Below are positions 400 to 10,526 of a stretch of 11,104 nt of DNA, piece after piece; the stretch's first letter is position 1, and each line of letters starts with the position of its first letter. Origin of the DNA: Candidatus Latescibacterota bacterium (GTDB taxonomy: Bacteria > Latescibacterota > UBA2968 > UBA8231); the NCBI GenBank assembly GCA_965243025.1, contig CBDETY010000002.1, forward strand, positions 1-11,104. Direction: 5' to 3'. The notes under the pieces were generated by a model. That model was given only the letters and a program-made list of their open reading frames with translations. It was not told where the DNA came from and did not search any database. Both the position numbers and the translations under genes were made by a program.

Positions 400-1791
400 G
401 TGGTGATGTGGCAAGGCCCGGCTCCAGTGGGGGAGCCGGGGACCCCTTCGCCTGCTCACCGGGAAGGTGCAACCCTGACCCCGCCTCACGAGCCTCCACA
501 ACCCGCCCGCCCCCATCGGCCCGCCCTGTTCGGCCGCCTGGCCGACCGATTGCGGCTGCGCCTGGGATTCTCCAACCTCGCCGGTGCGGAACTGGCTGGC
601 TTGTACCTGGAATCCGAGGACCTGGCCGGGAAGAACCTGGCCGGAGCCAACCTTTCCGGGGCATGGCTGCAGTCCGCGACGCTGACCGGGACCAATCTGC
701 GCCGGGCACATCTGCGCGGGGTGATGCTGGGCAAGGCGACCTTGATCGGCGCCGATCTGACTGGATCGAACCTGCAAGGAGCTTGGTTGGGCGTAGCGGA
801 CCTGAGAGAAGCGAACCTGCCAAGAGCCGTACTGCTCGGGGCGATGCTGCCTCTGGCGAGATTGGATCGCGTGGACCTGAAACTCTCTCGGATGAGGAGT
901 GCCTATCTCCCATGGGCCGTGCTGAAGGAGGCAGACCTGACAGGGGCGGACCTGCGCGGTTCGAACCTGTCTGTGGCCTGCCTCATCAGGGCGAGGCTAC
1001 CGAGCGCAAACCTGGCGGGGGCGCGCCTGTCCGCGGCGAATCTCCAGGAAGCCGAGTTGGACAAGGCCTGCTTGGCAGGAGCTTGGTTGGGCCGGTCGAC
1101 TCTGCCCGGTGGCATCACAGGACGCGGTGGCGAACCCTGGAAACTGTCCGGTGCCGATCTGACTGGCGCACGCCTATCCGGGGCCGACCTACGCGGCGCG
1201 AACCTATCCTACGTCAACCTGTCCGGCGCCCACCTGGAAGGTGCGCTCCTGGACGGCGCCAATCTGCGTGGAGCCAACCTCAGCAACACGAAGCTGAGAG
1301 AAGCCCATCTGTTCGGCGCCTGGATGACGGATGCGGAGCTGGAAGGGGCGGACCTCTCCGAATCCACCCGAGGGACAGCGATCGGCCTCGGAAAGAAGTC
1401 CCAGCCTAGTCAACTGAAGATGGATTTTGACCCTTCGCTCGATGTTGGCCCGCCCAGAGATCCAGATGAAGAGGGGGAAAGGGAAGCACAAGCCGAGCCA
1501 CCTTTGTACCTGGCGATCTCTCAGGGCAACATCGACGCTGGGGTCCCGTTGGACCTTCTGAAGTGCCCCGCGGTCCTGGCACTGCACGAGGCGGGCTGGG
1601 CCTATGCGGAGGTCCAGCCCGACTGTGTCCTGGTGGCCACCGCCGGAGACCCGCGCTGGTACGAACTCCGAGCGTACTCTCCAGGGCCGGACTTGGTCGC
1701 TTGGCTGGATGCCTTCGATGAGCACGAATCCGTGCTCCCGTGCTCCTTCGTGCTCGAGCCGTTGGAGTTCGCCAGTTTCCTATGGGGATGA
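400..1791 (+). CDS. Pentapeptide-repeat protein with C-terminal domain of unknown function (domain X)
   Basis: About 574-1365 is a long A(D/N)Lxx array (NLAGA, NLSGA, ADLTG, ANLRG), followed by an acidic/Pro linker (PPRDPDEEGEREAQAEPP) and a globular tail homologous to ORF 4662-4973. Start uncertain (GTG 400 or ATG 406). Confidence 0.92.
   Translation: MVMWQGPAPVGEPGTPSPAHREGATLTPPHEPPQPARPHRPALFGRLADRLRLRLGFSNLAGAELAGLYLESEDLAGKNLAGANLSGAWLQSATLTGTNLRRAHLRGVMLGKATLIGADLTGSNLQGAWLGVADLREANLPRAVLLGAMLPLARLDRVDLKLSRMRSAYLPWAVLKEADLTGADLRGSNLSVACLIRARLPSANLAGARLSAANLQEAELDKACLAGAWLGRSTLPGGITGRGGEPWKLSGADLTGARLSGADLRGANLSYVNLSGAHLEGALLDGANLRGANLSNTKLREAHLFGAWMTDAELEGADLSESTRGTAIGLGKKSQPSQLKMDFDPSLDVGPPRDPDEEGEREAQAEPPLYLAISQGNIDAGVPLDLLKCPAVLALHEAGWAYAEVQPDCVLVATAGDPRWYELRAYSPGPDLVAWLDAFDEHESVLPCSFVLEPLEFASFLWG
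777..1092 (+). repeat. Intragenic direct repeats in the pentapeptide array
   Basis: AGGAGCTTGGTTGGGC at 777-792 and 1077-1092 (300 bp apart); GCCGATCTGACTGG at 751-764 and 1153-1166. Confidence 0.8.
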
Positions 1792-1847
1792 CATAGGGCC
1801 CAAGAGTACACCGACCCGAAGACCCCCTCTTCACAGGAACCGCCTCG

Positions 1848-2366
1848 ATGAACGCCCTTGCCTTCGCCTTCGCCCTCGCTCTGGCGGTCCCGGTGACCGC
1901 CGGCGAACGGGCCAACCGCACCATCGCCGCCGCCGACCGCGCCGTCGCCTACGCTGACCGCGCCAGCGACTACGCCGATCAAGTGGTCGCCGCCGCGGAT
2001 AGCTGCCGCGAGGCGTTCGGCCGGCTCAACGTGGGGGACTTCGAGACCTTCCGGCCAGTGGGACTGGATCTCGACAGACACGGCCGCGAGGCGGGCCGGG
2101 CTCTTCAACTCGCGGTGCGCTATGTCCGGAACGCCGAGGACGAGGCCGCTGCCGCATGGGCCGCACACGGCAGCGTTGAGGACTTGACCCGCGCCCGGGA
2201 GGCGCAACCGAAGGCCGTCAATCAAGCGGCCCAACGAGCCGACCAGGCCCACGAGCGCGCCCTCGAAGCTGCCGGCCGGGCGATGGAGGCGGCAAAGGCC
2301 GTGAAAGACCTGAAGTACCACGCCGCCCTCTTGGGTGCCCTCCTTCAGCGGGGTGGCCCGGAGTGA
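1848..2366 (+). CDS. Secreted Ala-rich alpha-helical/coiled-coil hypothetical protein
   Basis: AGGA upstream of ATG; hydrophobic N-terminus MNALAFAFALALAVPVTA ending in a V-T-A signal-peptidase-like site; heptad repeats; G/C-ending codons. Confidence 0.8.
   Translation: MNALAFAFALALAVPVTAGERANRTIAAADRAVAYADRASDYADQVVAAADSCREAFGRLNVGDFETFRPVGLDLDRHGREAGRALQLAVRYVRNAEDEAAAAWAAHGSVEDLTRAREAQPKAVNQAAQRADQAHERALEAAGRAMEAAKAVKDLKYHAALLGALLQRGGPE
1926..2009 (+). repeat. Four degenerate 21-bp (7-aa) tandem repeats
   Basis: AAADRAV / AYADRAS / DYADQVV / AAADSCR; the first two units are gccgccgccgaccgcgccgtc and gcctacgctgaccgcgccagc. Confidence 0.7.
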
Positions 2367-2396
2367 GTTTCTGCAGGGAGCGCTGGCGTACACCCA

Positions 2397-4658
2397 ATGA
2401 CCGTCTTCAGAACTAGGCGATTCCTCTGGCCGGCGTACGTCGTGGTGATGTGCCTGGTGTCGGCTGTCTGCTTTGGAAGCCTGAAGGACGACCTCCTGCT
2501 CGATGGGCACGACCTGGATACCTTCCAGGACAACGTCGCCATCGGAGAGGACTTCTCCTTCTTCTTCTCTTCGGAGAAGCAGCAACCCACCGGCCGCCCG
2601 GTCGCTGACCTGGTCAAGTACATCGCCTACGAGATCTGGGGGAACGATCCCGGCATCTTCCACCTGCTCGTCGTAGCCGTTCACACCCTTGCCGCCCTTC
2701 TCCTGGCAAGCCTGTCCTTGCGACTGGGGATGGGCCTCCGGCTCAGCCTGGCGGGAGGTCTGCTCTTCCTGGTCAACGTCGCGCACTTCCAGCCCCTCCA
2801 CTGGATCTCCGCCTTCGACTACCCCTTGGCCCTGGCGCTGGGTCTGGGCAGCGTGAGCTGCTACCTGCGTTACATCTCCACCCAGCGATGGGGATGGCTG
2901 CTGGGATTCTACCTTGCGTCGGCCCTCAGCATGGCGAGCCATGCGGCGATGGCCTTCCTGTGGCCCTTCTGTCTCTACCTGTCATGGATTCTCGGACAGG
3001 ACACGAGAACCACCATTCGTCTGCTTCTGCCTCTGCTCGTCCTGATGGTATCGGAACTGGCCTTGATCGTGGCCATGACTCCCGGCGAGAGACAGGCCTT
3101 CGCTCTGCATCAGGAGAGGGACGCCACCGAGTTATCTCTCGAGACGGGCAAAGTTCTGCTCTATCTTGGCAGCCGGCTGCTGACCACCGCCCACTGGTTG
3201 CCTCTTCCTGTCTACGAACTGCAGCCGTGGGAGCTATACGTGGGTGCCGGGGTACTTGCAGGCCTGGGCGTGCTGGTGTACCGGAGGGGCTCTCCGGGTT
3301 CGTTGTGGTCGGTCTGGGTCCTCCTGTCCCTGCTTCCCTTCCTGCCGATGAAAGATACCGAAGCGCTACTGGTTCACCCCGCCGGAGGACCCTCTCGTTA
3401 TCTCTACTTGGCCACGGCGGGGACCTCGCTGCTGCTCGCTTGGGGCATGGAGGAAGCCCGTTCGCGACTCGGAAGTGTCCTCAGGTCAGGCGGACGGTAC
3501 CTGCTGTACGCGGCCGTCCTGACCGGCATCCTACTGAGCAGCTATCACTTTCTGAAGCAGTCGGAAGCGATCTCCCTCTACTCATCGGGCAGGCACTACA
3601 TCGCCCGTGGCGACTATGAGACAGGCGTGGAGCAGTTCAAGCGCGCCATCGCCCAAGGGAGGGATGCGATCCCCTTGCACGATGCCTACAAGCGCATCTG
3701 TCACGTGGGGATGGGGATGGAGGGGACTGAGACCATCCTTGACGAGGCGTTGGCCGCCTTCCCCACGAGCGTGGTGCTGAACACCTACAAGCTGGCCTTC
3801 GACTCCCTGAAGCCCGATTCCGTGCTCTCGAGACGGGCGTGGGAGCAGCTGCAGGGCCTTCACGCCGGGGAATCTCAGATCAGGGTGGGGTCAGGGAGGC
3901 GCCTCGTCTGGACCGACCGGGACATCACCGCGAGGATCAGGCAGAGTATCCCCGGATTCTACCACAACACTGGGCAGAACCTGGGCACGGGATTGGTGAC
4001 CCTGGAAAACCTGGACAGGGCCATCCTCGCCTACCGGCGCGCCCTGGAGTTCGACCCGAGTAGAATGGTGACCTACGAGCACCTGGTCTCCGCCCTGGCC
4101 TCCGACGGGCGGCCAGACGAGGCCGTGATGGCCGCTCTGGAGGCGGTGGAGCGGAATCCCGAGGCGCCGGCTGGATTGCAGGTAGCGGCGTCGCTCGCCC
4201 TGTTGGCAGCAGGGAGAGCGGAGGAAGCGGTAGCACTCTGTCACCGGGCCCTGAAGGACGGGTCCCCCACCGAGGTGCAGTCGCAGGCGGTCATCGAGAT
4301 CTACGGCAAGGTTCTGAGTGGGCAATACGGAGAAGTGAGCAGCGCGGCGGCCAGCCTGATGGGGCACGATCTGTTGGAGGGCGGACGCGCCGAAGAGGAA
4401 GAGGCGGTCAGGGCCTTCCGGCAGGCCCTGGCGAAGGACGCGGAGAGCAGCCGCGCCCACTTCGGCCTGGCACTGGCTCTGTTGGCGCAGGGGCACGTGG
4501 AGGAAGCGGAGGCTCTATGCGGAAGAGGAGTGGCGAGGTTCGGCCGGGCCGCGGCGGAGGAGGCCGGTGCGGTGGAAGGTGTCCAGCGTCTCATCGCCGA
4601 GGGCCTCCAGGTGGAGGCGGCCCGGAGGATACTCGCTACCCACTGGCCGCAACTGTGA
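2397..4658 (+). CDS. Multi-pass membrane protein, GT-C/TMTC-like glycosyltransferase with C-terminal TPRs
   Basis: N-terminal TM then an acidic loop (DDLLLDGHDLD), GRP..FHLL...VH motif, LLFLV...HFQPLHWISA and a later SRYLYLA motif as in TMTC/PMT-type proteins; about 10 hydrophobic segments; TPR-like helices (AILAYRRALEFDP, AFRQALAKDAESSRAHFGLALAL). Confidence 0.8.
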   Translation: MTVFRTRRFLWPAYVVVMCLVSAVCFGSLKDDLLLDGHDLDTFQDNVAIGEDFSFFFSSEKQQPTGRPVADLVKYIAYEIWGNDPGIFHLLVVAVHTLAALLLASLSLRLGMGLRLSLAGGLLFLVNVAHFQPLHWISAFDYPLALALGLGSVSCYLRYISTQRWGWLLGFYLASALSMASHAAMAFLWPFCLYLSWILGQDTRTTIRLLLPLLVLMVSELALIVAMTPGERQAFALHQERDATELSLETGKVLLYLGSRLLTTAHWLPLPVYELQPWELYVGAGVLAGLGVLVYRRGSPGSLWSVWVLLSLLPFLPMKDTEALLVHPAGGPSRYLYLATAGTSLLLAWGMEEARSRLGSVLRSGGRYLLYAAVLTGILLSSYHFLKQSEAISLYSSGRHYIARGDYETGVEQFKRAIAQGRDAIPLHDAYKRICHVGMGMEGTETILDEALAAFPTSVVLNTYKLAFDSLKPDSVLSRRAWEQLQGLHAGESQIRVGSGRRLVWTDRDITARIRQSIPGFYHNTGQNLGTGLVTLENLDRAILAYRRALEFDPSRMVTYEHLVSALASDGRPDEAVMAALEAVERNPEAPAGLQVAASLALLAAGRAEEAVALCHRALKDGSPTEVQSQAVIEIYGKVLSGQYGEVSSAAASLMGHDLLEGGRAEEEEAVRAFRQALAKDAESSRAHFGLALALLAQGHVEEAEALCGRGVARFGRAAAEEAGAVEGVQRLIAEGLQVEAARRILATHWPQL

Positions 4659-4661
4659 GGC

Positions 4662-4973
4662 ATGGGGCCGATGCCGAAGCTCGACGCCTTGACCTTCCGC
4701 ATCCGTCAGGTGAATATCGAGGACGGGGTGCCGGGATCGGGCACCGACTGCGCGGCGGCGCTGGCGCTTCTGGACAAGGGGTGGGCCTTTGCGGAGGTCG
4801 ACATCGACTGCGTGCGCGTGGCCACGCACGGCGACTTGGAGCGCATCGCCGAAACCGGCGAGCCGGAGCCGCTGCGGACGTACCGTCGCAGTCCCGAGTT
4901 CGCCGCCTGGATGGCGGACTACGACGCGGATCGGCCCGTGCTACCGCGCTCGTTCGAGCTCCAGCCGCTGTGA
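4662..4973 (+). CDS. Small hypothetical protein: stand-alone domain X
   Basis: Starts 3 nt after the previous stop (alternative ATG 4671); G/C-ending codons; aligns by eye with 1516-1764 (GWAFAEV.DCV.VAT.GD and VLP.SF.L.PL). Confidence 0.85.
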   Translation: MGPMPKLDALTFRIRQVNIEDGVPGSGTDCAAALALLDKGWAFAEVDIDCVRVATHGDLERIAETGEPEPLRTYRRSPEFAAWMADYDADRPVLPRSFELQPL

Positions 4974-5454
4974 GGAGTGCAACGGCTCGATCCGCCAGCC
5001 CTGGACGGGGCGCCGGGCCATCGTCTGCAGCCCGGAGTGCCGGAACCAGCGCAAGGCCCGGCTTCGGCAGGCCGGGCGGGATCAGGCCGGGGACCGGGCC
5101 CGGTTGCGGCCGGACGCGCCGACGCCGTATCGTCCTCGGGAGAAGGTGGCCGCGGCGATCGCGGCGGCCGGCACCCTGCAGGGCGCGGCCGCGGTCCTCG
5201 GGATCGGCTGGACGGCCGCCGAGCGGCTGATCCGCTTCCACCGCCTCGGGGCGGCCTTGAAGCGGGCGAACGCCGCCCACCGGGCCGAGGCCGGGGCCCT
5301 GCCGGGCGAGCCGGGGGCGCCGCACGCCTCGGGCGTGCGCATCCGGAAGCTGCCGCCGAACGTCGGCGCCGGCGCCGAGCCGGCCGGCGGCACGGAGTGG
5401 CACGACCCGGCCCCGGAATGGCGTGGGCTGGTACAGATCGATCCTGACGCCTGA
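4969..5454 (+). CDS. Zn-finger (CxxC..CSxxC) plus HTH-like protein; start codon not identifiable
   Basis: CEEC-x16-CSPECR followed by a basic helix, then AAAIAAAGTLQGAAAVLGIGWTAAERLIRFHRL (Fis/HTH_8-like pattern). The only canonical in-frame start is TTG 4789, deep inside the upstream ORF. Confidence 0.65.
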   Translation, partial: CEECNGSIRQPWTGRRAIVCSPECRNQRKARLRQAGRDQAGDRARLRPDAPTPYRPREKVAAAIAAAGTLQGAAAVLGIGWTAAERLIRFHRLGAALKRANAAHRAEAGALPGEPGAPHASGVRIRKLPPNVGAGAEPAGGTEWHDPAPEWRGLVQIDPDA

Positions 5455-6630: not shown

Positions 6631-9543
6631 ATGAACGAGGTTGCCTTCAACGCCCGCCTGGCCGGGGTGCTGGAGACCAAGCACCCGGGTTGGCGCGGCC
6701 ACATCCGCGCCGAGTCACGGGGGGTTGTCCGGTCCGGTCTGCAGCCGGACTTGGTCCTTCATCCGCCCGGGGCCGCACCGGTGGTGCTTGAGACGGAGTT
6801 CGCGCCAGCCGCAGGAGTAGAGGACGACGCCCGACGCCGACTGGGAGAAGAGCTGGCCACGACCGGCGATCGGATCGAGCAGGCCATCGCCGTCCGGATT
6901 CCGCAGGTCCTGAGACGGGTTGAGACGGGTGTCGCAGAGCTGGATCGGGAGATCGAGCACGCCTCCTTCCGCTACTGCACGTTCTCTTCCCATGCCAGCG
7001 ACGTCTCCCCGGTCCGCTGGCCGAGCGAAGGCTGGCTCGAGGGCGGCATCGACGACTTGGCCGTCTGCCTTGAGACCGTCTCCCTGTCAGAGCAGAGGGT
7101 AGCCCAGGGGGTGGACACCCTGGAGCGAGGGATCGCCGAGGCCAGCGGGGCCCTGCGCCGCACGGCGGGCTCCCACGCAGCTGAGACGATGGCCGAGGAA
7201 CTGTATCAGGAGGACAGCGAGCAGACCTCCCGCATGGCCATGGCCATCGTCGCCAACGCCCTGGTCTTCCACACGGCGCTCGTCGAGCCCCACGGCATCG
7301 AAACCATCGACGAGCTGCGCACGTCGCGCGGGGAGGTCAGCAAGCCGCGGTTGCTGGCCTGTTGGAAACGCATCCTCCGGGAGATCAACTACTACCCCAT
7401 CTTCAAGATCGCCTCCCGCCTGCTGTGGCCGATCCCCAACGGTACCGCGAACGCGGTCCTCGACCGGCTGGCGGTGACGGCCAGCGACCTGGCCAGCCTG
7501 GGGGCCACGACCCTGCACGACCTGTCGGGACGCATGTTCCAACGGCTGATCGCCGACCGCAAGTTCCTGGCCACCTTCTACACGCTGCCGGAATCGGCCT
7601 CCCTGCTCGCCGAGCTGGCCGTGGCCCGCCTCGAGGATCGGGATTGGTCGGAACCAGACACGCTCACGTCGCTCAGGATCGCGGACCTGGCCTGCGGCAC
7701 GGGTGCCCTGCTGTCGGCCTCGTACCGGGCCCTGGCGCAACGCCATCGCCGGACAGGCGGCGACGACGAAGGCTTGCACCGGGCCATGATCGAGAAGGCC
7801 CTCGTGGCGGCCGACATCATGCCGGCGGCCACCCACCTGACCGCCTCGATGCTGTCGAGCGCCCACCCGGCCATCACCTTCCGTCGCACCCAGGTACACA
7901 CCATGGCCTACGGACGGCAGGAGCACCAAGGGCGAGAGGAGGTCATCTCCTTGGGGAGCCTCGACCTGATCGAGGAGAGTGCCGCGCCGTCCCTGTTCGG
8001 AACCGGCATCGGGGTAGCCCACGGGGCTGGCGCCACGGTGGAGACACCCACCAGCGACCTGGTGCTGATCCGTGGAACGGCCGACCTGGTCATCATGAAT
8101 CCCCCCTTCACGCGGCCCACCAACCACGAGAGGCGATTGCCGGTGCCCGTGCCCTCGTTTGCCGGGTTCGGCAACGCCGCCGAGGAACAGCGGGCGATGA
8201 GCACCCGGCTGAAGGGGATCTACACTCGACTCCGGTCCAAGGGAGCTCCGGCCGGCCACGGCAACGCTGGGCTGGCCTCCAACTTCATCGACCTCGCCCA
8301 CGCCAAGATCAAGCCGGGCGGCGTCCTGGCCCTGGTACTGCCGTCTGCGTTTGTGAACGGAAGCTCCTGGGGCCCTGCCCGCGCCTTGCTCCAACGCGAG
8401 TACGAGGACCTCGCCGTGCTGACCATCGCGGCCCACGGTTCGACCGACCGGGCCTTCTCGGCCGACACGGGCATGGCCGAGGCCCTCGTGGTGGCCACCA
8501 AACGCCGGGGGCCGCGACGAAGGGAGAACGCACTGTTCGTCAACCTTCGGCATCGGCCGCGCAGCCTCGCGGAGGCGTTCGAGATGGCCCAGGCGGTGCG
8601 CCGCCTACCCCCGCAGCACCAGGGCCAGCTGCGCGTGGGCACCCACGAGATCGTCGGCACCTACATCCGCGCCCCCTTGAACCAAGGCGGCTGCGCGGCC
8701 TTACGGGAGACGACGCTGGCCGAGACCGCCATCGACCTGACGAGAACGGGCACGCTCCGCTTGCCGCGAGGATTCTCGGCACGACTTCCCACGACGGCCC
8801 TGGAGGTGCTCGGCCGCCCTGGGCTATACCACATCGACATCAACGGCTACCACACCGACAGGAGCCCTCGAGGCCCGTTCGACATCATCCCCGTTCAGGG
8901 AGTGCGTCCGCAGTATCCGGCCCTGTGGAGCCACGACGCCGGCCGGGAGCGGCGCCTCGTCGTCGAACCCGACACCGAAGGGGTGGCACGTCCGGACTGC
9001 GAAGACCGCGCCGCAGCGGCCTGGAGGCGGACGGCCTCGCAGCTGCACTTCACCCTCGACTTCCAGCTCAACTCGCAGGCCCTGGCTGCCTGCGTCACGC
9101 CGGGGAAAGCCATCGGCGGGAGGGCGTGGCCCAACTTCCTTCCGGCGCAGGCCGAGTGGACCTGGCCCCTGGTCCTGTGGGCCAACACGACTCTGGGGAT
9201 GCTCGCCTTCTGGTGGATCGGCACTCGCCAGCAGCAGGGCCGGGCAATCCTGACGATCACGCAGTTACCCCGCCTGACGGTCCTGGATCCCCGAGCCCTC
9301 AGTCAGGACCAGCTCGACCGCGCCAAGGTCCTGTTCGAGCGGTTCTCAGGGGAGACGTTCCTGCCGGCCAACGAGGCATACCGGGACCCGGTGCGCCAGG
9401 GCCTCGACCGCGCTGTCCTGGTGGAACTGCTGGAGTTGTCTGGAGAGGTTCTCGAACCGCTCGCCGTCCTTCGCGACCAGTGGTGCGGGGAGCCGAGCGT
9501 GCACGGGGGCAAGAAGACGCGGATCAGAAAACCGGAACACTGA
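6631..9543 (+). CDS. Single-chain Type IIG-like restriction-modification enzyme (nuclease, amino-methyltransferase, target recognition domain)
   Basis: N-terminal QPDLVL..VVLETE (PD-(D/E)xK-like); gamma-class MTase order TFYT (X), DLACGTG (I), ADIMP (II), NPPF (IV), FSADT (VIII); about 300-aa C-terminal region consistent with a TRD. Confidence 0.85.
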   Translation: MNEVAFNARLAGVLETKHPGWRGHIRAESRGVVRSGLQPDLVLHPPGAAPVVLETEFAPAAGVEDDARRRLGEELATTGDRIEQAIAVRIPQVLRRVETGVAELDREIEHASFRYCTFSSHASDVSPVRWPSEGWLEGGIDDLAVCLETVSLSEQRVAQGVDTLERGIAEASGALRRTAGSHAAETMAEELYQEDSEQTSRMAMAIVANALVFHTALVEPHGIETIDELRTSRGEVSKPRLLACWKRILREINYYPIFKIASRLLWPIPNGTANAVLDRLAVTASDLASLGATTLHDLSGRMFQRLIADRKFLATFYTLPESASLLAELAVARLEDRDWSEPDTLTSLRIADLACGTGALLSASYRALAQRHRRTGGDDEGLHRAMIEKALVAADIMPAATHLTASMLSSAHPAITFRRTQVHTMAYGRQEHQGREEVISLGSLDLIEESAAPSLFGTGIGVAHGAGATVETPTSDLVLIRGTADLVIMNPPFTRPTNHERRLPVPVPSFAGFGNAAEEQRAMSTRLKGIYTRLRSKGAPAGHGNAGLASNFIDLAHAKIKPGGVLALVLPSAFVNGSSWGPARALLQREYEDLAVLTIAAHGSTDRAFSADTGMAEALVVATKRRGPRRRENALFVNLRHRPRSLAEAFEMAQAVRRLPPQHQGQLRVGTHEIVGTYIRAPLNQGGCAALRETTLAETAIDLTRTGTLRLPRGFSARLPTTALEVLGRPGLYHIDINGYHTDRSPRGPFDIIPVQGVRPQYPALWSHDAGRERRLVVEPDTEGVARPDCEDRAAAAWRRTASQLHFTLDFQLNSQALAACVTPGKAIGGRAWPNFLPAQAEWTWPLVLWANTTLGMLAFWWIGTRQQQGRAILTITQLPRLTVLDPRALSQDQLDRAKVLFERFSGETFLPANEAYRDPVRQGLDRAVLVELLELSGEVLEPLAVLRDQWCGEPSVHGGKKTRIRKPEH

Positions 9544-9570
9544 AAGGGTCGTTGACCTTACCGCGAGCCA

Positions 9571-9610
9571 AGATGGATCGCTCACTATAGATGGATCGCT
9601 CACTCACTAT
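9571..9610 (+). repeat. 18-bp tandem duplication
   Basis: AGATGGATCGCTCACTAT (9571-9588) then AGATGGATCGCTCACT-CACT-AT (9589-9610); the second copy has an extra CACT. Confidence 0.9.
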
Positions 9611-9628
9611 ATTTGAGGAATATCTCTC

Positions 9629-9868
9629 ATGGAAAGCTCAGAGAATCTACTACTCCGCATCCTAGAAAACAGGATCTTCATAGGCGCCCTGTTCTCTATC
9701 CAGAAGGACGCTGACATTGCCCTCATGATACAGGGATTGCAAGATCCGACACTCGATGCTCGCTTGGAAGCCGAGTTTGGGCCTACTGCGGCCAAGTTCA
9801 CAGCTGATGCTGTTCAGGCTGTAACGAAGAATCTTCGGGAGATTCTTCATCAAAGAAGCCAATGGTAA
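9629..9868 (+). CDS. Hypothetical protein (79 aa), AT-richer than its neighbours
   Basis: GAGGA RBS upstream of ATG; amphipathic helical sequence; many A/T-ending codons. Confidence 0.6.
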   Translation: MESSENLLLRILENRIFIGALFSIQKDADIALMIQGLQDPTLDARLEAEFGPTAAKFTADAVQAVTKNLREILHQRSQW

Positions 9869-9974
9869 GGATCGGCCTCACGAAGGTCACAATTGCCTCT
9901 CCTACGAGAGCCTTCTGAGAGTTGACAGGGGGTATGCCTGCATGAGCACCCCTGATCTGCGGATCATCCATGGC

Positions 9975-10002
9975 TTGACTCCACCGGAAATGGGGTTAGA
10001 TT
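9975..10002 (+). promoter_or_regulatory. Putative sigma70-type promoter
   Basis: TTGACT (9975-9980), 16-nt spacer, TAGATT (9997-10002). Confidence 0.5.
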
Positions 10003-10142: not shown

Positions 10143-10526
10143 CTACTGGACCCAGGGGACAGAAGCGGAGTTACTATCGAATGTTGTGGACCGGGTAGCC
10201 GGCCCACCGGGTAGACGGTAGAAAGGAAGAGAGCGTATCCTCAGGCCGGGGGTGACGGTGACCTGGACCCGTCGGTCGCCGCCGTCGACGCGCGGGATCG
10301 TGGAGCTCAGGTCGAGCCGGTGCCAGGTGCCGTCGGCCACCAGGTCCAGCTCGGAAGGCGACGGCGACAGGGCCGCCCGAATGGGGGGCGCGAGCGGTTC
10401 CCCGATGTTCCAGGGATTGCCCGATTCGGCCGCGTAGAGGAAGCGGCCCAAATGCTTCAGGTCGTCCCAATCGTTGTCGCCGTCGCGGTCGATGTCGAGC
10501 AGGTCGAAATCGTAGTGCTCGGCCAT
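10143..10526 (-). CDS. Hypothetical protein with EF-hand/dockerin-like Ca-binding loop; probably 3'-truncated
   Basis: DIDRDGDNDWDDL matches DxDxDGxxDxxD; G/C-ending codons until about 10240, then the frame runs into unrelated AT-richer sequence. Confidence 0.65.
   Translation of the reverse strand: MAEHYDFDLLDIDRDGDNDWDDLKHLGRFLYAAESGNPWNIGEPLAPPIRAALSPSPSELDLVADGTWHRLDLSSTIPRVDGGDRRVQVTVTPGLRIRSLPFYRLPGGPATRSTTFDSNSASVPWVQ

Follow-up and report, generated by a model that had tools for sequence, protein, structure and literature searches.

Pentapeptide-repeat proteins of the MfpA and Qnr type carry a short dimerisation helix at their C-terminus. According to passages of one published study, MfpA, Qnr, McbG and AlbG are regarded as DNA mimics, and the same passages report no inhibition of BREX by McbG and QnrB (PMC7261183). 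In the leading regions of plasmids, SSBs, methyltransferases and many uncharacterised genes have been described, in passages of another study, as clustering with anti-defence genes, and about 10% of those uncharacterised genes are phage-annotated (PMC11541004). The window considered here (the whole stretch of 11,104 nucleotides that was analysed, from a Candidatus Latescibacterota bacterium) encodes two copies of a small domain, called X below, one fused to a pentapeptide-repeat beta-helix and the other forming a gene of its own. The reading that we favour, with somewhat better than even confidence, is that X is a mobile-element domain of the phage protein family phrog_19191, which was duplicated here and would act as a non-enzymatic binding module, this last part taken by itself being well short of an even chance.

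The first copy lies at 1504-1770 on the forward strand, like all the features that follow (X HMM E 5.6e-23; phrog_19191 E 2.3e-5; residues 379-467 of the open frame). The second is a stand-alone gene at 4662-4973 encoding 103 aa, or 100 aa if the ATG at 4671 is its start (HMM envelope 4683-4973, E 4.6e-24; phrog_19191 E 7e-4; GC3 0.90). Alignment by BLASTP of residues 369-455 of the 463-aa ORF at 400-1791 with residues 10-103 of the 103-aa ORF gave 44 identities in 94 positions (47%) with 7 gap positions and an E of 4e-20, which agrees with an earlier sequence-only reading of this DNA that had recognised the domain as present twice, fused and stand-alone, and had counted by hand 41 of 78 identities and one 7-aa indel between 1516-1764 and 4701-4970. 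The similarity at the DNA level that it had also pointed out corresponds to a direct repeat of 87 nt (1564-1650 versus 4749-4835) that is 71% identical. A word-index search with copy 2 returned itself alone (one of 14 candidates). The tree placed the two copies as sisters with support of 96/85, and since they are closest to each other they stem from a lineage-specific duplication. The copies are 2.9 kb apart and are separated by two envelope-type genes, namely a 172-aa ORF at 1848-2366 that belongs to no family and has an N-terminus that looks like a signal peptide by eye, and a 753-aa membrane protein with C-terminal TPR repeats at 2397-4658 (TPR families), which has a chromosomal paralogue at C3:4616210-4617835 (43.5% identity over 563 aa). 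Both of these genes, the first putatively secreted, look like ordinary cell-envelope genes, an observation that counts against the role considered for X.

The fused copy belongs to an ORF of 463 aa if counted from the first GTG, the true start being uncertain. It consists of a generic pentapeptide-repeat region at 550-1341 (Pfam PF00805, PF13599 and PF13576), an acidic, low-constraint linker of about 54 aa at 1342-1503, which contains an in-frame ATG at 1420 and has a GC3 of 0.56 versus 0.75-0.83 in the flanking domains, and X copy 1. The PF00805 match (E 1.8e-54; 181.2 bits against a cut-off of 20.2) falls into 8 stretches of tandem A(D/N)LXX repeats, and because the reading frame runs uninterrupted from the repeats to the end of X, this is a fusion by sequence, as had been proposed. 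The suggestion that the pentapeptide part might be of the Qnr or MfpA kind did not hold, since it scored 59 bits against the 240 required by the NCBIfam Qnr model NF033086 and 65.4 against the 360 required by the MfpA model NF000349, and all Qnr subfamily models stayed below 60 bits with cut-offs of 425-500. Among the loci examined, the pentapeptide-X fusion was seen on this contig only. Word-index searches for fused forms, made with the X alignment against longer proteins and with residues 350-463, returned none at a low sensitivity that also missed the window's own long ORF. As the fusion was seen nowhere else, it may be recent and possibly inconsequential; if functional, it would be a natural experiment suggesting that X brings something to a target.

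Both X copies match phrog_19191 (PHROGs v4, function not assigned) over about 81 of its 91 profile positions, as do all 61 aligned relatives, with a best E of 9.8e-21. The domain had been described as unnamed, which is right with respect to Pfam and NCBIfam, where no model for X was found and no Pfam family was matched by more than one of the 61 relatives, and wrong in that it was already catalogued in PHROGs. It is also uncharacterised, as had been said. The family phrog_19191 has no assigned function, its phage members are uncharacterised, and a literature search by the name phrog_19191, whose reach did not extend to supplementary tables, found no paper. An exhaustive profile search with a two-sequence alignment at E<=1e-3 returned 63 proteins, comprising the window's own protein, two false positives and 60 others, of which 59 are 77-142 aa long and the remaining one is a 224-aa tandem X-X protein. 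The candidates P0002 and P0025 (1181 and 943 aa) were rejected as members because they are Ig-like repeat proteins that share only a short CPASLAL-like motif. Copy 2, at 100-103 aa, fits the stand-alone size of the family, and copy 1 departs from it as the C-terminal domain of a 463-aa ORF. Some relatives have X inside longer ORFs bearing other extensions. The view of X as a modular unit is supported, and the domain is real and autonomous.

The family pattern is TQxxIxxG / CPxAxAL / FD...VxPxxF, and, apart from a frequent Thr-Gln in strand 1, the only polar residues conserved in at least 90% of the 61 sequences are C30 and D88; no His and no second Cys is conserved in this set. Both Cys residues are indeed kept between the two window copies, as had been noted, and family-wide only the first of them (C30) is conserved, the second (C50) being a Tyr in a contig of about 95% identity from the sponge metagenome of another study (hereafter the X6 contig). 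Metal binding, which had been offered as one option, is therefore unsupported, because C30 and D88 are the only conserved candidates. The conserved Cys could equally mean catalysis. The conservation of C30 and D88 would suit a small thiol enzyme or thiol-based sensor, in which the Cys, with Asp and Gln, is catalytic or redox-active; however, a conserved His or second Cys is missing, the domain is very small, no enzyme was matched by fold or sequence in PDB or Pfam, and diverged paralogue arrays are more typical of binders, so that we regard this alternative as improbable.

The AlphaFold2 model of X (pLDDT 95.8, for the stand-alone copy) predicts a compact, independently folding alpha/beta domain of about 85 aa with the order b1-a1-a2-b2-b3-a3-b4-a4-b5, in which C30 stands at the start of helix 2 and D88 at the end of helix 4. 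Comparison with the PDB returned nothing at E<=1e-3 by Foldseek (best TM 0.25-0.33), a single match of E 0.24 by profile and, by VIA over 48,161 chains, 20 chains with Z>=2, none with Z>=5 and a best Z of 3.1. In these three comparisons with solved structures no known anti-defence protein resembled X in sequence or fold. These misses do not prove a new fold. In contrast to the PDB, the BFVD searched with Foldseek gave 8 matches at E<=1e-3 and probability 1.00 (TM 0.60-0.76 by query and up to 0.91 by target), all of them uncharacterised phage proteins. The Atlas clusters nearest to the model are 90-100% viral, and a search restricted to named Atlas clusters gave no usable match. The predicted complex of the two X copies scored 0.00 in both runs, which were made without controls and so speak neither for nor against such a contact.

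The resemblance of X to small phage hypothetical proteins, pointed out in the sequence-only reading, is thus confirmed by phrog_19191, by the BFVD phage proteins and by genes of Gordonia and Tunturiibacter phages. Searches by tblastn with the relatives P0024 and P0006 matched 18 and 13 phage records, respectively, all of them Gordonia phages but one Tunturiibacter phage and every match annotated as 'hypothetical', and the corresponding search with copy 2 of the window found no phage record at E<=1. The relatives sit among small phage genes that form arrays, where adjacent, diverged paralogues are frequent, and two or three neighbouring X copies occur in four of the seven phage loci examined (three in Gibbles and two each in Keelan, Guey18 and Tunturi_3). 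The two-copy layout recurs widely. Selection on X is purifying, as judged from dN/dS between the copies and from conservation across the family, and the pentapeptide fusion was seen on this contig only. In cells the distribution is patchy, with X found in 5 of 61 related genomes and in 9 of the 168 genomes from the phylum. The neighbours of cellular X genes include genes for tyrosine integrases, for a Toprim primase, for SSB and RadC and for a ParB-like protein, as well as DUF7007, DUF3560, an IS1595 transposase, a group II intron reverse transcriptase, an MmeI/Eco57I-type methyltransferase and an S-AdoMet-lyase-like protein whose 26.4 bits are under Pfam's cut-off of 28. Many of the neighbours are themselves without an assigned function. 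Five further loci, obtained by scanning genome contigs with a degenerate DNA pattern, were discarded as chance matches, none of them fitting the X HMM. The family phrog_19191 belongs to phages and to elements of the integrative or conjugative type.

The DNA-handling neighbours (ParB, SSB, the methyltransferase and, on the window, a Zn-ribbon/HTH ORF), as well as the fusion to a DNA-shaped pentapeptide helix, could be taken to mean that X binds nucleic acid itself, for example as a small DNA-binding regulator of mobile-element genes. Such a function is hard to reconcile with the charge of the family, which is net negative in 47 of 61 members (mean -5.2; -7 and -12 for the window copies), and the structure searches matched X to no HTH, ribbon-helix-helix or OB-like fold, for which reasons we hold it to be very improbable. 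With respect to the window itself, a restriction-modification gene had been said to lie nearby, and this corresponds to the ORF at 6631-9543, which encodes a 970-aa N6-adenine-methyltransferase-like protein, possibly of a fused restriction-modification type (PADLOC MTase_II 8e-10, mad2 1.2e-8). Its direct Pfam matches are weak, with NPPF and DxxCGxG motifs recognised by eye, and its homologue in genome G004 (27.6% identical, E 1.1e-42) matches N6_Mtase (9.4e-8), MmeI_Mtase (2.8e-6) and Eco57I. Neither X nor the pentapeptide ORF nor the Zn-ribbon ORF was matched by PADLOC.

Directly after X copy 2 lies an ORF of about 162 aa without a start codon of its own at 4966-5454 (GC3 0.93; no Pfam family), which encodes a putative Zn-ribbon with four Cys arranged as CxxC-x15-CxxxC, a candidate for the DksA/TraR or the TRASH/FCS-like type, and an HTH-like part. 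Beyond a weak HNH-endonuclease PHROG match (0.0025), none of the Pfam, NCBIfam and PHROG families matched it with the thresholds applied, and across 61 genomes it matched itself alone. A look-alike ribbon in genome G001 came close to zf-dskA_traR, with 23.5 against a cut-off of 24.9. At the junction (4965-4973), the TGA stop of X (4971-4973) overlaps the first Cys codon (4969-4971) of this ORF, which is in the +1 frame, and GC3 switches frame in the 4940-5029 bin. After 4789 the Zn-ribbon frame contains no ATG, GTG or TTG. Initiation at the TTG at 4789, which would create an overlap of 185 nt, is unlikely, as that frame has a GC3 of 0.72 compared with 0.86-0.93 for the frame of X, and one synonymous versus five non-synonymous changes. 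An assembly error is also unlikely, since the contigs from three studies are in agreement and 4527-5453 is free of indels in the diverged X6 contig. The sequence at the junction is CCG CTG TGA in the window, and in the X6 contig the Pro codon is CCC, which creates a CCC-C run. None of the sequencing runs listed as containing the stretch is recorded as RNA. A start-less ORF in the +1 frame, with a junction that is free of indels in a second study, makes a recoding or reinitiation puzzle that can be tested separately.

This arrangement bears on the proposal that X is a docking unit linking the pentapeptide DNA mimic to the Zn-ribbon/HTH DNA binder, through X:X or X:Zn-ribbon contacts, in a regulator/anti-regulator module. 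Copy 2 abuts the Zn-ribbon/HTH ORF, with the overlap of frames preserved without indel in the X6 contig, and the codon changes in the downstream frame (seven synonymous versus five non-synonymous among the differences shown) suggest that X and the Zn-ribbon may form one product or be translated in a coupled manner. Additionally, phage Gibbles encodes a CxxC..CSxxC ribbon about 300 nt upstream of its X array, each of the three loci of genome G001 has one at a distance of 4-6 kb from X, and one X protein of G004 has a Cys-rich C-terminal tail. On the other hand, of the 14 X loci scanned, 9 lack the ribbon motif, and among the five that have it three belong to the single genome G001; the ribbons are alike at the motif level only (E 0.034 and 0.002, each from a single pairwise comparison); no homologue of the Zn-ribbon/HTH protein could be detected in 60 relatives; the family members are mostly stand-alone; and the window shows no evident slippery site for a frameshift. 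The docking of the two proteins by X is unlikely in our judgement, though we rank it ahead of the other alternatives.

It could also be argued that the window copies are decaying passengers and that the fusion and the start-less Zn-ribbon ORF are functionless by-products of a recent rearrangement. The low GC3 of the linker, the occurrence of the fusion on this contig only, the missing start codon and the changes in X relative to the X6 contig (four synonymous and five non-synonymous codon changes among the differences listed) are in line with this. Nevertheless, all family-conserved positions are present in both copies, both frames are intact, and the same arrangement is found at about 95% identity in the metagenome of the second study. 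Besides, dN between the copies is 0.42-0.46 and dS 0.79-0.91, giving a dN/dS of about 0.5, which by sequence comparison suggests purifying selection that is only moderate and is read at a dS near saturation. We regard decay as improbable.

Returning to the function of X, we put forward tentatively, at well short of an even chance, that it is a non-enzymatic binding module with which mobile elements would act at the host interface, in a role of the establishment or anti-defence kind. What points to an anti-defence or binding role is the neighbourhood only. On its own, X would bind a nucleic-acid-handling protein of the host or of the element and block or modulate its action, the pentapeptide-X fusion would tether a DNA-shaped beta-helix to the same target as stand-alone X, and C30 and D88 would mark a binding or functional surface and not a metal site. 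The window contains no integrase, SSB, ParB or conjugation gene, which counts against this role. A far bolder proposal is that X founds a structurally new family inhibiting host nucleic-acid-targeting immunity, with pentapeptide-X as a two-part anti-restriction effector in which X anchors the DNA-mimicking beta-helix on a restriction/modification-type enzyme, and with stand-alone X extended by +1 recoding into the Zn-ribbon/HTH regulator, so that one gene would yield a free binder and a DNA-tethered form; we regard this combination as highly improbable. Although members of the X family are common in phages and integrative elements, Pfam has no entry for it, no structure of it is solved and no paper on it was found. 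Arrays of small acidic paralogues near SSB, ParB, RadC and methyltransferase genes are the richest current source of new anti-defence proteins, which makes the X family a reasonable candidate for screening. If X is an ordinary structural or regulatory phage protein, it is merely a new domain without an assigned function.

Compared with known systems, the window resembles the programmed +1 frameshifting of prfB in that a +1 change of frame coincides with a UGA stop and the frame after it bears signs of selection, but it has no slippery codon of the CUU-U type and no evident upstream Shine-Dalgarno stimulator. Like the gyrase protectors MfpA, Qnr, McbG and AlbG, the fused ORF has a pentapeptide-repeat beta-helix, which makes up its N-terminal 260 aa; unlike them, the protein is longer, with about 50 repeats, and no link to gyrase was found, and in comparison with MfpA and Qnr it carries a C-terminal X in place of the short dimerisation helix. 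With anti-defence islands (phage early regions and plasmid/ICE leading regions, with ArdA, Ocr, SAM lyase, orphan methyltransferases, SSB and PsiB), the relatives of X have in common the type of neighbourhood (SSB, ParB, RadC, methyltransferase and many small uncharacterised genes), and X the small size and acidic charge, the patchy distribution and the arrays of paralogues, whereas the window lacks transfer or integration genes and X matched no known anti-defence protein among solved structures. The closest counterparts are the members of phrog_19191, for example those of the Gordonia phages Gibbles (genes 102, 104 and 105), Keelan (4 and 5), Yvonnetastic and Volt and of the Tunturiibacter phage Tunturi_3 (gp41 and gp42). 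The window X differs from them in that its contig is bacterial, the organism being probably sponge-associated, and not that of a phage, in having one copy fused to a pentapeptide-repeat helix, as in no other locus examined, and in the spacing of its copies, which lie 2.9 kb apart and are not adjacent, while it shares with them the profile, the predicted fold, the stand-alone size, the multi-copy layout and the conserved pattern.

Domain X occurs twice in the window, as the C-terminus of a 463-aa ORF (400-1791, + strand) and as a stand-alone 103-aa ORF (4662-4973, +); all coding frames were called by third-position GC content (GC3). Residues 369-455 of the former aligned with residues 10-103 of the latter by BLASTP (44/94 identical, E 4e-20) with a single gap region of 6-7 residues, and at the DNA level the copies have an 87-nt stretch in common (71% identity). 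Pentapeptide repeats (PF00805, 181 bits) make up the N-terminal part of the longer ORF and the frame stays open, without a stop, from the repeats into X, confirming the sequence-only reading of a domain of about 85 aa present both fused and alone. The linker (1342-1503, about 54 aa) is acidic, has an in-frame GC3 of 0.56 vs 0.75-0.83 in both flanking domains and contains an in-frame ATG at position 1420; therefore, it resembles a tether under little constraint and may once have been a spacer separating two genes. Two further ORFs, of 172 aa (1848-2366, +) and 753 aa (2397-4658, +), lie between the X copies. Selection between the copies is purifying but not strong (dN 0.42-0.46, dS 0.79-0.91; Nei-Gojobori with Jukes-Cantor correction), with dS near saturation. 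Maximum-likelihood analysis of 32 X domains placed the window copies as sisters (support 96/85), and likewise two adjacent copies of another X-carrying genome, G004 (95/85); the program cautions that the window pair lies close to where long branches join.

The repeats had been likened to the gyrase-protecting proteins Qnr and MfpA, which was not borne out, since the PENTAPEPTIDE part of the 463-aa ORF scored only 65.4 bits for MfpA (cut-off 360) and 59 for Qnr (cut-off 240). The single model passed was that of the Alr5209 family (150 vs 125 bits; a short repeat model, with four matches). Judged by these scores, the pentapeptide part is generic, and a DNA-mimic role is an analogy rather than family membership. 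PMC7261183 presents McbG and QnrB as gyrase protectors of a DNA-mimic-like kind, neither of which inhibited BREX.

The family to which X belongs is already catalogued but unstudied. Both window copies lacked a match in Pfam and NCBIfam and matched a single PHROG family, phrog_19191, of 'unknown function', over almost its whole length (E 7e-4 and 2.3e-5), and a literature search under this family name found no paper. An exhaustive HMMER search of 1.84 billion representatives with a profile built from both copies, as the sequence-only reading had proposed, recovered 63 proteins at E<=1e-3, the window's own among them; 59 were 77-142 aa long and one, P0031 (224 aa), was a tandem X-X protein. Two candidates, P0002 and P0025, were dropped as Ig-like repeat proteins matching a short motif only. 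The 61-sequence alignment (A2) comprised the two window copies and 59 relatives, excluding P0001, P0002, P0025 and P0031; all 61 matched phrog_19191 (best E 9.8e-21), and no Pfam family was matched by more than one of them at E<=1. Ten representatives that were checked all came from short metagenome contigs, one named 'hypothetical protein' at source and nine unnamed.

The conserved pattern of X reads (V/I)TQxxIxxG ... CPxAxAL ... (W/F)IxxFD ... VxPxxFxL, with G22 invariant in A2 and I19, C30, A33, A35, V46, D88, V93 and P95 conserved in at least 90% of the sequences. One Cys and one Asp are therefore the only conserved polar residues, and the proposed metal binding is not supported. Retention of both Cys holds for the two window copies, to which the second Cys is specific, and fails for the family, in which only C30 is kept. 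The family is mostly acidic (47/61 net negative, mean charge -5.2).

The suggested likeness of X to uncharacterised phage proteins was strengthened by several comparisons. Searches by tblastn with two family members matched 18 and 13 phage records, all of Gordonia phages with the single exception of Tunturiibacter phage Tunturi_3 and each annotated 'hypothetical protein'; the window's own X copy matched no phage record at E<=1. In seven phage loci, X sits among long runs of small unannotated genes, and within the stretches fetched an HMM scan found more than one copy in four of the seven (three in Gibbles; a pair side by side in each of Keelan, Guey18 and Tunturi_3). Moreover, an AlphaFold2 model of X built from A2 (pLDDT 95.8, pTM 0.86) predicted the order strand 10-14, helix 16-21, helix 31-38, strands 43-46 and 50-54, helix 56-65, strand 72-75, helix 78-88 and strand 96-102, and matched eight predicted viral structures at E<=1e-3. 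Every one of the eight is an uncharacterised phage protein, and Gordonia phages Yvonnetastic and Volt contribute two apiece. The nearest ESM-Atlas clusters were unnamed and 90-100% viral, and no named cluster matched. Foldseek against the PDB returned nothing at E<=1e-3 (best TM 0.2-0.3), VIA-align against 48,161 representative chains gave 20 hits at Z>=2 and none at Z>=5 (best Z 3.1 over 57 residues), and a profile search of PDB sequences gave a single match at E 0.24. None of the three methods thus found a solved analogue of the predicted model, which does not in itself prove a new fold.

The cellular distribution of X is patchy. Counting the window's genome, X was present in 5/61 related genomes and, at E<=1e-5, in 9/168 genomes of the phylum; it was also found in at least 2/401 sampled genomes of another phylum, that of an Oscillochloris genome, with 13 candidates per genome scored. 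One of the latter (G351; loci L038 and L040-L043) carries five copies on four contigs. Three of the five score identically, as copies on a repeated element would, and one of the five adjoins a DUF6197 gene. The window's genome holds a third copy on the chromosome (C3:1029553-1029804), next to DUF3560, RadC, SWIB, an IS1595 transposase and a group II intron reverse transcriptase. The three copies in genome G001 lie in integrative elements with tyrosine integrases, Toprim primase, a ParB-like protein, SSB, RadC and DUF7007.

Within this phylum X often lies in longer ORFs (GC3 calls with predicted starts): the chromosomal C3 copy has an N-terminal extension of about 100 aa, one G001 copy (269 aa) has extensions on both sides, copies in G001 and G052/G111 have C-terminal extensions of about 85-100 aa, and one G004 copy has a Cys-rich tail (CxxxC...CxxC). 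These extensions matched nothing in Pfam or NCBIfam. Pentapeptide repeats were absent from every other one of the 43 loci scanned, and two word-index searches, which are weak evidence, returned no fused forms of greater length. Therefore, X is modular, as had been supposed, and its fusion to pentapeptide repeats is so far unique to the window contig; the multi-copy layout recurs elsewhere and only the fusion is confined to this contig.

The assembly comprises three contigs with GC of 65-67% (C3, 6.78 Mb; C1, 14.6 kb; the window, C2, 11,104 bp); the window ends overlap neither each other nor the other contigs, and no tRNA gene was found in the window. On contig C1 (14,617 bp) a set of 6-7 ORFs recurs roughly three times at intervals of about 4,988 bp (starts 1102, 6090 and 11078). 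The contig resembles a concatemeric assembly of a small circular plasmid and shares no sequence with the window.

Copy 2 of X ends in CCG CTG TGA (stop 4971-4973), and the protein-like frame that follows (4965-5454, +), in the +1 frame relative to X, encodes CxxC-x15-CxxxC and then an HTH-like segment. Its first Cys codon (4969-4971) overlaps the TGA of X, and no ATG, GTG or TTG occurs in this frame between 4789 and that codon. GC3 is high in the X frame as far as 4939 (0.86-0.93) and in the +1 frame from 4940 to 5389 (0.90-1.00), the switch falling exactly at the junction. Contigs from runs of three studies cover the junction; runs X1 and X3, which may be the source, match the window there without change, as does X5. 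The contig of run X6, labelled sponge metagenome and about 95% identical, has 67 differences from the window between 4301 and 5540 together with 14 gap letters, all of the latter before 4527 or at 5453 and none at the junction. Among the 40 of these 67 differences that were listed, synonymous vs non-synonymous changes numbered 4 vs 5 in the X frame (including C50Y, which removes the second Cys), 1 vs 5 in the +1 frame upstream of the junction and 7 vs 5 downstream. The frame switch is therefore real and kept in a diverged relative, the upstream +1 overlap is non-coding, and the Zn-ribbon/HTH frame shows signs of selection. This start-less +1 junction is new here, together with the pentapeptide fusion.

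The Zn-ribbon/HTH ORF could be a broken former fusion, a gene that lost its start or one recently disabled; it could also be translated by non-canonical initiation or reinitiation, from an internal GTG (5146, preceded by GGGAG) giving an HTH-only product, or by +1 recoding. No obvious slippery site was seen at the window junction; in X6 the Pro codon is CCC instead of CCG, giving a CCC-C run. According to the sequence-only reading, X would dock a putative pentapeptide mimic to this Zn-ribbon/HTH binder, for which one may cite the adjacency of X and the recurrence of a CxxC..CSxxC ribbon about 300 nt upstream of the Gibbles X array and 4-6 kb from X in 3/3 G001 loci. The ribbon was missing from the other 9 of 14 loci scanned, one match in the window was an off-frame chance match, pairwise similarity among the ribbons was marginal, and the Zn-ribbon/HTH protein had no homologue in 60 related genomes. 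We consider such docking improbable. The earlier interpretation is supported in part, in that X is modular, phage-like and uncharacterised.

Altogether, X is an autonomous, locally duplicating domain of a mobile-element-borne family, mostly acidic and without an enzyme-like signature. Three clustered copies in G004 lie 3-6 kb from an 899-aa protein (L015:1677-4376) matching N6_Mtase, MmeI_Mtase and Eco57I, a homologue (27.6% identity, E 1.1e-42) of the 970-aa methyltransferase-like protein of the window (6631-9543, +). This protein has NPPF and DxxCGxG motifs, identified by eye, and no Pfam match in its N-terminal ~200 aa and C-terminal ~350 aa. Directly past the window gene GC falls to 0.51 (9500-10000), and a perfect 16-nt direct repeat has two units 18 nt apart (9571-9586 and 9589-9604). 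A 127-aa Asp-rich, DxDxDG-like ORF (10143-10526, - strand) has at least five weak paralogous matches on the chromosome, two of which lie no more than 15 kb from the X copy there.

In G052, the gene directly upstream of X (L019:7540-8289) has a sub-threshold match to S-AdoMet-lyase (E 7.5e-6, 26.4 vs 28 bits), a family known from phage anti-restriction. Our tentative proposal is that X may be a binding module that acts where mobile element and host meet, in establishment or in anti-defence; the fused copy would then tether a DNA-shaped helix to the target of X. According to PMC11541004, the anti-defence genes of plasmid leading regions cluster with SSBs, methyltransferases and numerous uncharacterised genes, some 10% of which carry phage-associated annotation. 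The neighbourhoods of X resemble the leading regions so described in gene context, a likeness of context rather than proof of function.
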